A stretch of 64,000 nt of DNA from Escherichia coli (GTDB lineage Bacteria; Pseudomonadota; Gammaproteobacteria; Enterobacterales; Enterobacteriaceae): the NCBI RefSeq assembly GCF_003790525.1, contig NZ_CP033635.1; one strand, given 5' to 3'. Made by a program: the position numbers and the translations under genes. Numbering within the stretch: the first letter of the stretch is position 1; every line of letters starts with the position of its first letter. This document shows positions 1,064 through 1,680 of the stretch, piece by piece. The notes under the pieces were generated by a model. It had not been told where the DNA came from and did no database searches. It saw only the letters and a program-made list of their open reading frames with translations.

Positions 1064-1276
1064 ATGTCTAATAAAATGACTGGTTTAGTAAAATGGTTTA
1101 ACGCAGATAAAGGTTTTGGCTTTATCACTCCTGATGATGGCAGCAAAGACGTTTTCGTCCATTTCACCGCCATCCAGAGCAATGAATTCCGCACGCTGAA
1201 CGAAAATCAGAAAGTTGAATTTTCTATTGAGCAGGGGCAACGTGGTCCCGCGGCAGCGAACGTTGTTACGCTCTAA
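1064..1276 (+). CDS. cspG: Cold-shock protein CspG (70 aa)
   Basis: [37 protein letters not shown]...; classic RNP1/RNP2 motifs of CspA family. Confidence 0.9.
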
Positions 1277-1286
1277 GGTTGCCGTT

Positions 1287-1475
1287 ATTACTCAACATCT
1301 CCATTTCCGCTGTCCATGTTGTCATGGTTCACAGTACCGCACATCGGCATTCGATGTGACGGAGCGAAATCCTTTAGGGGCAAAGTGTATTTTTTGTAAA
1401 TCGACGATGATCACCTTTGATAACGTCGCGCTGCAAATACGCACTGAGCATGCGCCGCTGGATTTCACAAAATAA
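1287..1475 (+). CDS. Small Cys-rich zinc-ribbon-like protein (possibly ymcF); start codon uncertain, no in-frame ATG
   Basis: Open frame downstream of cspG encoding ...HLHFRCPCCHGSQY...GAKCIFCKS... (CPxC ... CxxC); only TTG (1215, overlapping cspG) or ATT (1287) available as initiators; followed by a terminator hairpin. Confidence 0.35.
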   Translation: MTQHLHFRCPCCHGSQYRTSAFDVTERNPLGAKCIFCKSTMITFDNVALQIRTEHAPLDFTK

Positions 1476-1680
1476 TATCAGGCTCCCTCGTGGAGCCTTT
1501 TTTATATCTGCCTTATTTTTCTTCAACGCTGTATGTATAGTAAGCGATAACCTGTTGATTATTGAATCTTTCGGGGAGATGGCTTATAACATTTCTTACC
1601 TGACCAGGGTACCGGGAACCAACACCTTACTGGCGTGTTGCTGTCTTTCAAGACCAGACGAGGTTAACAGTGAATATTGA
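1450..1680 (+). CDS. ymcE: Small protein YmcE (76 aa; GnsA-associated)
   Basis: ATG at 1450 inside the 87-aa ORF; product MRRWISQNNIRLPRGAFFISALFFFNAVCIV... matches remembered YmcE; immediately upstream of gnsA. Confidence 0.6.
   Translation: MRRWISQNNIRLPRGAFFISALFFFNAVCIVSDNLLIIESFGEMAYNISYLTRVPGTNTLLACCCLSRPDEVNSEY
1481..1503 (+). terminator. Rho-independent terminator-like hairpin downstream of cspG/ymcF-like ORF
   Basis: GGCTCC-ctcgt-GGAGCC stem-loop followed by TTTTTT. Confidence 0.5.

Follow-up and report, generated by a model that had tools for sequence, protein, structure and literature searches.

ymcF as an AUU-initiated second cistron behind cspG, and doubts about the coding status of ymcE, in Escherichia coli

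The locus lies near one end of a 64,000-nt stretch of Escherichia coli DNA (contig NZ_CP033635.1), referred to here at its full length as the window. It comprises cspG, a 62-codon reading frame with four cysteines, the annotated ymcE ORF and gnsA, flanked on the opposite strand by cspH and yccM (Table 1). Positions 1000–1900 were 100% identical to E. coli SMS-3-5, and the cspG-ymcF-ymcE-gnsA segment was found in 5,393 of 5,426 complete E. coli genomes. The RefSeq annotation, including an ATT start for ymcF, was the same in SMS-3-5, K-12 and one clinical isolate. Every ORF described in an earlier note on this DNA was present where that note had placed it, and the ymcE ORF does begin inside the 3' end of the cysteine-containing frame, with an overlap of 26 nt. 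A covariance-model search matched the cspA-type thermoregulator RF01766 at 908–1330 with 157.1 bits against a gathering score of 78 (E = 1.4e-42). Since a leader of this type precedes cspG and an intrinsic terminator follows ymcF, we read the two genes as one transcription unit.

Table 1. Coordinates of the features at the cspG–gnsA locus, numbered from the first nucleotide of the window.
Feature	Position	Strand	Basis or remark
cspH	566-778	-	RefSeq
cspG 5' leader, cspA-type thermoregulator	908-1063	+	Rfam RF01766; upstream of ATG1064
cspG CDS, 70 aa, first cistron	1064-1276	+	RefSeq; NCBIfam CspG equivalog 1.3e-53
cspG stop codon TAA	1274-1276	+	
ymcF Shine-Dalgarno TAAGGT, overlapping the cspG stop	1274-1279	+	conserved in csp-adjacent homologues
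ymcF initiation codon ATT	1287-1289	+	RefSeq CDS start and aligned codons
ymcF CDS, 62 aa, second cistron	1287-1475	+	RefSeq, Pfam PF23641, UniProt YMCF_ECOLI
First putative zinc knuckle C9-P-C-C12	1311-1322	+	C9, C12 invariant in 80/80
Second putative zinc knuckle C34-I-F-C37	1386-1397	+	C34, C37 invariant in 80/80
Annotated ymcE ORF, 76 codons, ATG 1450, TGA 1678-1680	1450-1680	+	RefSeq, NCBIfam, Pfam PF15939
ymcF stop codon TAA	1473-1475	+	
Intrinsic terminator of the cspG-ymcF transcript	1480-1504	+	GC-rich stem and T-run, conserved
Candidate gnsA promoter-like element: -35 TTGAAT 1562-1567, 17-nt spacer, -10 TATAAC 1585-1590	1562-1590	+	predicted
gnsA CDS, 57 aa, GTG start	1670-1843	+	RefSeq; Pfam PF08178 7.6e-36
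yccM	1892-2965	-	RefSeq

The Cys4 frame behind cspG is ymcF, a gene that already has a name and an annotated ATT start in the reference annotations, with the RefSeq product name 'cold shock small protein YmcF'. Its product matched Pfam family PF23641 (YmcF-like) over residues 1–62 of 62, with 164.4 bits against a cut-off of 27 (E = 6.5e-49), and the window protein has all the invariant columns of the family core, HFRCPxCxGSQYRxSxFD...NPxGAKCIFCKxxM, in which the NPxGAKCIFCK motif around the second knuckle is nearly invariant. The description in the earlier note of a zinc-ribbon-like 62-codon frame lacking a usable canonical start agrees with this family match and with the ATT in RefSeq. That the frame was a named and annotated gene had gone unrecognised there. 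K-12 YmcF is 98% identical to the window protein, the single residue change being E55 here for D55. In K-12 the gene occupies the same site between cspG and ymcE, has the same annotated ATT start and differs in nothing structural; the start region reads GTT ATT in SMS-3-5 and ATT ATT in K-12. Because ymcF and its ATT start are present in the reference annotations, their identification adds little, and only two results go beyond existing annotation: the way in which the start codon correlates with an adjacent csp, and the doubt cast on ymcE.

Published RNA-seq lists contain ymcF among the genes that go up together with cspG, cspI and cspB (PMC13058169; PMC10920338), and a 2026 listing gives YmcF as 'uncharacterized' (PMC13058169). 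A full-text literature search for 'ymcF' returned transcriptome lists and unrelated acronyms only, and ribosome footprints, a tagged protein or an N-terminal peptide of YmcF were not found in the searchable literature. VanOrsdel 2018 (PMC6001520) does not contain YmcF, the cold-shock sORF in that study being YnfR; the Weaver preprint does not mention YmcF, and the locus is absent from the Nakahigashi TetRP paper and its supplements.

We assessed codon-level conservation of ymcF in 80 distinct core DNA sequences, from 80 loci taken from about 190 Enterobacteriaceae matches in a genome scan, and counted variable sites by codon position in eight Escherichia lineages. The results showed that C9, C12, C34 and C37 never vary in the 80 sequences, with TGT and TGC interchanging freely at these positions. 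Residues G14, S15, Q16, R18, S20, D23, N28 and P29 were also invariant despite extensive synonymous change, as were G31, A32, K33, I35, F36, K38 and M41. Among the Escherichia lineages, variable sites in ymcF fell 3/2/21 on the first, second and third codon positions, a pattern like those of cspG (5/3/24) and gnsA (7/1/18). Purifying selection on the Cys codons, whose absence the earlier note had named as grounds for refutation, was therefore borne out. These comparisons indicate that the ymcF frame is under strong codon-level purifying selection, far beyond chance, and that ymcF is a real gene.

At the codon aligned with ATT1287, ATT was present in 40 loci, ATC in 3 and ATG in 31, and a further 4 loci had an ATG within three codons of the aligned position (80 of about 190 matches). 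A Shine-Dalgarno sequence lay 7–8 nt before the start in every case. Here it is UAAGG at 1274–1278, 8 nt ahead of the ATT, and takes in the cspG stop; TAAGG or TGAGG was kept in all csp-adjacent homologues, and stand-alone copies have AGGAG instead. In 16 of the 43 ATT/ATC loci, the frame from the conserved His6 back to the first in-frame stop upstream was free of ATG, GTG and TTG, and in-frame stops lay 9–27 nt upstream in Kosakonia (9 nt), Yokenella, Trabulsiella, Siccibacter, Pluralibacter and some Citrobacter. The E. coli frame is open upstream to 1200 and includes TTG1215, TTG1227, GTG1242 and TTG1263, all within cspG and none preceded by a Shine-Dalgarno sequence; its sole ATG is codon 41. 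The earlier note had named TTG1215 and ATT1287 as the only initiators: ATT1287 stands, but three further in-frame TTG or GTG codons had been passed over. At this locus an AUU occupies the place where orthologues have AUG, behind a Shine-Dalgarno sequence and with no usable canonical alternative. Annotation and comparative evidence together indicate that ATT1287 is the ymcF initiator, which places ymcF, with comparative backing, in the very small set of E. coli genes for which AUU is the obligate start.

Three other accounts of this frame were weighed against the same evidence. Initiation upstream, at one of the four TTG or GTG codons inside cspG, would give a zinc-ribbon protein of 70–86 aa from a gene overlapping cspG; it fits the open E. 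coli frame, and some gene callers report versions of 70–72 aa in Citrobacter and Kosakonia. However, the candidate codons have no Shine-Dalgarno sequence, the extension is not conserved, the additional N-terminal residues are unrelated among genera in the alignment, and the ATG of stand-alone copies falls exactly at the aligned position. The 16 loci without a canonical codon and the stops close upstream exclude such a start as the conserved solution, and we consider it very improbable. Slightly less credible again is the production of YmcF as a CspG–YmcF fusion, made by ribosomes that shift to the +1 frame or read through the stop codon where cspG ends. The arrangement in the window would allow it, as ymcF follows cspG in the +1 frame after a 10-nt gap, with its frame open over the last 25 cspG codons, and in Kosakonia the gap is 9 nt and both genes are in frame. 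A fusion is nevertheless disfavoured, since the gap varies between 9 and 10 nt among genera and the frame relation is not conserved; in addition, the nearby upstream in-frame stops of many species would halt a shifted ribosome, the conserved Shine-Dalgarno sequence is properly spaced, and in about 34 loci the protein is encoded by itself, with an ATG start. A chance ORF or decaying pseudogene without translation would accord with the missing canonical start and with the omission of the frame from many automated phage annotations and from PHROGs, which has no ymcF-like family. Against it stand strongly conserved amino acids amid abundant synonymous change across at least 15 genera, a retained length of 62 codons and the existence of orthologues with an ATG start. 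The conservation of the Cys codons and the codon-position pattern effectively refute this account, to which we attach the lowest probability of the three.

With ATT1287 as the initiator, ymcF resembles infC (encoding IF3) and pcnB, the classical AUU-initiated genes of E. coli, in having an AUU behind a Shine-Dalgarno sequence. The likeness to infC goes further: infC follows thrS with UAA GGU AUU (PMC3592434), ymcF likewise starts a few nucleotides past an upstream UAA, and in both cases the stop codon of the upstream gene is part of the Shine-Dalgarno sequence. In addition, infC is cold-inducible (PMC5499595). In 2016, experimental confirmation of an AUU start was credited to infC and pcnB alone (10.1101/063800); for ymcF the AUU is supported by annotation and comparison.

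The cysteine pattern suggests that YmcF is a Cys4 zinc-ribbon-type protein with two CxxC knuckles and four invariant cysteines. The knuckles are 21 residues apart and are predicted to lie on short beta-strands, and the best structural matches were the ribbons of TFIIE-alpha and TFIIB; the Cys4 ribbon of the MqsA N-terminal domain gave only a weak Foldseek match to YmcF. A first AlphaFold model, built from 38 sequences, was poor (pLDDT 59), and its Foldseek matches were insignificant. A profile search of the PDB yielded motif-level matches only, to the CPxCHG knuckle of UvrA and to the CPCHGSQY box of Rieske proteins (E at least 0.011). In a 50-sequence alignment that included distant family members, C9, C12 and C37 were invariant and C34 was kept in at least 90%. 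C11 and H13 varied, which points to the classical CxxC...CxxC ligand set; for the same reason a Rieske-like 2Fe-2S reading of YmcF was rejected. The NCBIfam model ECs_2282_CxxC scored 17.6 bits, below its cut-off of 37. The family is narrow: an HMM search of the whole library of 1.84 billion proteins returned 42 cluster representatives only, and so no deeper superfamily link emerged.

We then compared the start-codon class of the homologues with their position relative to a csp gene in the 80 loci (of about 190 matches). Where ymcF began 9–10 nt behind a csp stop codon, 37 loci had ATT or ATC and 1 had an ATG-type start; where no csp was adjacent, the numbers were 6 and 34, respectively. In the lone csp-adjacent ATG locus (L020), csp is altered at its 3' end and overlaps ymcF. 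Four loci (L036, L064, L070 and L080) have kept ATT with no csp or ORF upstream, and, given four to six ATT homologues without an adjacent csp, AUU is not strictly tied to coupling. The correlation with adjacency is not phylogenetically independent; a rough neighbour-joining tree, based on only 138 nt, suggests about 7 changes of start-codon class and about 6 changes of adjacency, with several co-switches.

The region upstream of stand-alone copies was also informative. Among 13 stand-alone loci tested by alignment with a shuffle test, the 250 nt upstream resembled the cspG promoter and leader in 6 (z 4.8–11.7), belonging to Enterobacter, Lelliottia, K. pneumoniae and unclassified Enterobacteriaceae, and 4 of these 6 were also collinear with the leader. 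Five of the six have ATG at the aligned codon, and the sixth (L057) has an ATG three codons upstream. Similarity to the leader was absent within 250 nt in K. oxytoca, Raoultella and some others, and the full-length cspA Rfam model gave no match at stand-alone ymcF loci. In the leader-like lineages, ymcF appears to have replaced the csp cistron behind a csp-type leader, with AUG as its start. Because the start-codon class tracks second- versus first-cistron context, the family amounts to a clean natural experiment, within the cold-shock regulon, on how start codons are chosen and translation is coupled.

The terminator, a 7-bp GC-rich stem with a T-run, stands 5 nt after the ymcF stop, has a fold energy of -12 kcal/mol (z = -3.15) and is conserved in all Escherichia loci. 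In Salmonella, the Rfam family STnc220 (102 bits) covers exactly the final 40 nt of the ymcF orthologue together with the terminator. Positions 1433–1513 of the window contain a sub-threshold STnc220 homologue (29.9 bits), in which the terminator is homologous to the 3' part of STnc220.

The ymcE ORF runs across this terminator, which occupies its codons 11–18. Variable sites in the non-overlapping part of ymcE were distributed 13/9/11 over the codon positions in Escherichia, showing no coding periodicity, in contrast to the 3/2/21 of ymcF and the 7/1/18 of gnsA. Lineage L004 carries 2-nt and 1-nt deletions, L006 and L037 have a 1-nt deletion each, L005 has lost 6 nt and its frame is truncated, and the ATG is lost in L005, L007 and L008. 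Thus, in 6 of the 8 Escherichia lineages, ymcE has either suffered a frameshift or lost its ATG, and the 76-codon ORF was found only in the two E. coli proper loci. No YmcE ORF accompanied the GnsA homologues in 10 Citrobacter loci or in phages, although a nucleotide-level trace was seen beside gnsA in 2 loci. Conservation along the ORF was mosaic: divergence was 0–3% in the terminator segment (1476–1505), rose in the spacer (1506–1544) to 28% relative to E. albertii and 36% relative to L004, and was 0.8% between K-12 and E. albertii across the promoter-like element and gnsA leader (1545–1669), compared with 7.5–12.7% in neighbouring coding genes for the same pair. The Shine-Dalgarno sequence of ymcE is poor, with GAG just 1 nt ahead of the ATG.

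These results indicate that ymcE is most likely no conserved protein gene but a composite of terminator, variable spacer, gnsA promoter-like element and leader; it is simplest to suppose that one frame through this stretch is open in E. coli by accident. A contrasting view is that ymcE is a genuine, evolutionarily young E. coli gene encoding an antitoxin of GnsA, so that three small genes are stacked here. In its favour, ymcE is annotated everywhere (RefSeq, NCBIfam and Pfam PF15939), every sampled E. coli proper has kept its ORF intact, and a published classification counts it among young genes (PMC12218254); ynfR, a comparable sORF that likewise spans a terminator, was seen as a tagged protein after cold shock (PMC6001520). 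One published list (PMC8484670) includes ymcE-gnsA as an E. coli type II pair, citing Wei et al. 2015, and points to literature reporting that YmcE neutralises GnsA toxicity. The flat codon-position counts, the frameshifts and lost start codons, the gnsA/gnsB homologues without a ymcE ORF in Citrobacter and phages, the mosaic conservation, the poor Shine-Dalgarno sequence and the terminator inside the ORF all speak against a young gene, which we regard as unlikely, though still deserving some weight. Both ORFs of the YmcE-GnsA pair (PF15939/PF08178) are present here with their Pfam matches and an 11-nt overlap; set beside what defines a type II toxin-antitoxin system, YmcE is not co-conserved with GnsA and lacks protein-level purifying selection. 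The suggestion in the earlier note that GnsA and YmcE are toxin-antitoxin-like is thus right about the label, which exists in the literature and Pfam, but the comparative evidence gives an antitoxin gene no support, and the dense stack of three small genes that it described does not hold for ymcE. The YmcE 'antitoxin' annotation, which is widely copied, looks unsafe, and this bears on toxin-antitoxin catalogues and on models built from them.

As the earlier note had observed, gnsA starts with a GTG (1670) that overlaps the ymcE stop by those 11 nt, and this codon aligns with ATG in Citrobacter and phage homologues. An AGAGG-type Shine-Dalgarno sequence lies 6–7 nt upstream of the gnsA start, being GAGG in the window, and falls inside the conserved block 1545–1669. 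The TTGAAT and TATAAC hexamers and their 17-nt spacing recur before gnsA or gnsB in Escherichia, Citrobacter and phage Tritos, with varying spacer sequence, which makes 1562–1590 a candidate gnsA promoter. A promoter scan missed the element because TATAAC fails a rule demanding T at position 6. The gnsA leader gave no significant RNA folding (z = +1.33).

We put at about 0.8 the probability of the main reading, namely that ymcF is a real, AUU-started second cistron of the cspG transcript encoding a Cys4-type protein, and that ymcE is not a conserved protein gene. A cold-inducible transcript would begin with the cspA-type leader at about 908, run through cspG and ymcF and end at the terminator. 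Initiation at AUU1287 would depend on the UAAGG that shares bases with the cspG stop codon, 10 nt upstream. Being weak, the AUU start probably restricts YmcF to a level far under that of Csp, which is translated massively; measured with a reporter, AUU was 6–8 fold weaker than AUG (PMC3592434). By analogy with thrS-infC, the start may in addition link the synthesis of YmcF to the termination of ribosomes on cspG. Where ymcF is the first cistron, AUG would be used instead, several such copies lying behind a csp-like leader. In vitro, AUU mRNAs reportedly performed less well in the cold (PMC5499595), which makes AUU unlikely as a cold-specific enhancer; the same authors describe IF3 discrimination as temperature-sensitive (PMC5499595). 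The cspG-ymcF junction showed no significant RNA folding (z = -1.26).

A stronger version, which we offer tentatively and hold to be possible rather than probable, is that the AUU/AUC start of ymcF is a conserved regulatory device and that 'ymcE' is a mis-annotated terminator-promoter-leader segment. On this proposal, a start placed 9–10 nt behind the csp stop would make YmcF synthesis hinge on ribosomes terminating on csp, and a cold-induced relaxation of IF3 discrimination could contribute, setting a low, cold-specific YmcF:Csp ratio. Where the csp cistron was lost and ymcF inherited the csp leader, the start would have returned to AUG. If this is true, ymcF would be the third, IF3-sensitive AUU gene of E. 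coli, within the cold-shock translation programme, and YmcE-GnsA would drop off the list of toxin-antitoxin systems. As to function, YmcF most likely binds nucleic acid (RNA) or the ribosome during cold acclimation, a proposal suggested by its conserved basic and aromatic face (Y17, R18, K33, F36 and K38) and its co-expression with RNA chaperones.

The cspG-ymcF arrangement also occurs in lambdoid phages (Tritos, HannyBb, mEp460, 2H10 and others), where the same module is placed after the lysis genes. In these phages and in the Qin prophage, the module has a cspI-like gene followed, after a gap of 10 nt, by a ymcF-like gene with an ATT start and by a terminator, along with ynfR, ynfN and gnsB. 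The phage version has ynfN and a different spacer, whereas the chromosome has ymcE. Of the 9 phage records with a match, 5 have no annotation at the ymcF-like match and 1 has only an antisense ORF there; the gene has been missed there because of its non-canonical start. The chromosomal ymcF copy, in contrast, is fixed in nearly all E. coli, beside cspH and yccM.

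No coding signature was found for ymcE between Escherichia lineages, as the variable sites were split 13/9/11 over the codon positions, and in sister Escherichia lineages the ORF is frameshifted or its ATG is gone. Conservation across ymcE is a patchwork that comprises the terminator, a hypervariable spacer and an ultra-conserved block of 125 nt. The promoter-like element 5' of gnsA retains its position and spacing upstream of gns genes in Citrobacter and phage Tritos; with this element, gnsA transcription would be predicted to start at ~1597, within ymcE.

Features at the ymcF-gnsA region and at homologous loci (L-numbers, in their own coordinates)
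Feature	Location	Strand	Remark
YmcF C-terminus	window 1461-1472	+	DFTK in E. coli
ymcE, annotated 'antitoxin' ORF	window 1450-1680	+	coding signature absent
Counterpart of STnc220 (Rfam sRNA family, Salmonella)	window 1433-1513; L015 and L025 2647-2726		ymcF 3' end + terminator
Paralogous csp/ymcF-like module, lambdoid phages	L084 (phage Tritos) 2278-3337; L085 (phage HannyBb) 2275-3338		behind lysis genes
ynfR, sORF of 21 aa	L084 2692-2757		superimposed on terminator hairpin after ymcF-like gene
Promoter-like element 5' of gnsA	window 1562-1590	+	TTGAAT - 17 nt - TATAAC

STnc220 covers the ymcF orthologue's 3' end together with its terminator (Rfam match: Salmonella, 102 bits; window, 29.9 bits). 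The STnc220 'sRNA' is likely a 3'-end piece of the csp-ymcF mRNA.

In lambdoid phages, the paralogous module runs from csp through an ATT-started ymcF-like gene and a terminator with ynfR to ynfN and gnsB. The position of ynfR over the phage terminator hairpin resembles that of ymcE, whose N-terminus, RLPRGAFF, is the translated window terminator; cold-shock induction of the tagged ynfR sORF has been reported (PMC6001520). The ymcF-like gene is unannotated in 5 of the 9 phage records with a match, and the HannyBb record carries only an antisense ORF there.

In the ~250 nt upstream of position 2501, we found a cspG-like promoter and 5' leader immediately 5' of ATG-started stand-alone ymcF homologues (L062, L068, L071, L077, L081 and L057), an arrangement that would fit a deletion of the csp cistron ahead of ymcF. 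These homologues belong to Enterobacter, Lelliottia, K. pneumoniae and unclassified Enterobacteriaceae. Both configurations occur in one genome of Citrobacter braakii, where an ATT copy adjoining csp and an ATG stand-alone copy (L014 and L083) lie ~3.5 kb apart on a single contig. Exceptions to the coupling pattern were L036, L064, L070 and L080, which retain the ATT start and AAGGA SD around 2501 with no csp or other ORF end upstream of the ymcF homologue; these may be copies in decay.

The C-terminal tail of most YmcF family members is of a conserved aromatic-Arg-Lys type (DFRK, EFRK or EYRK); E. coli YmcF ends in DFTK. Disorder is predicted for this tail, which could act as a docking motif.
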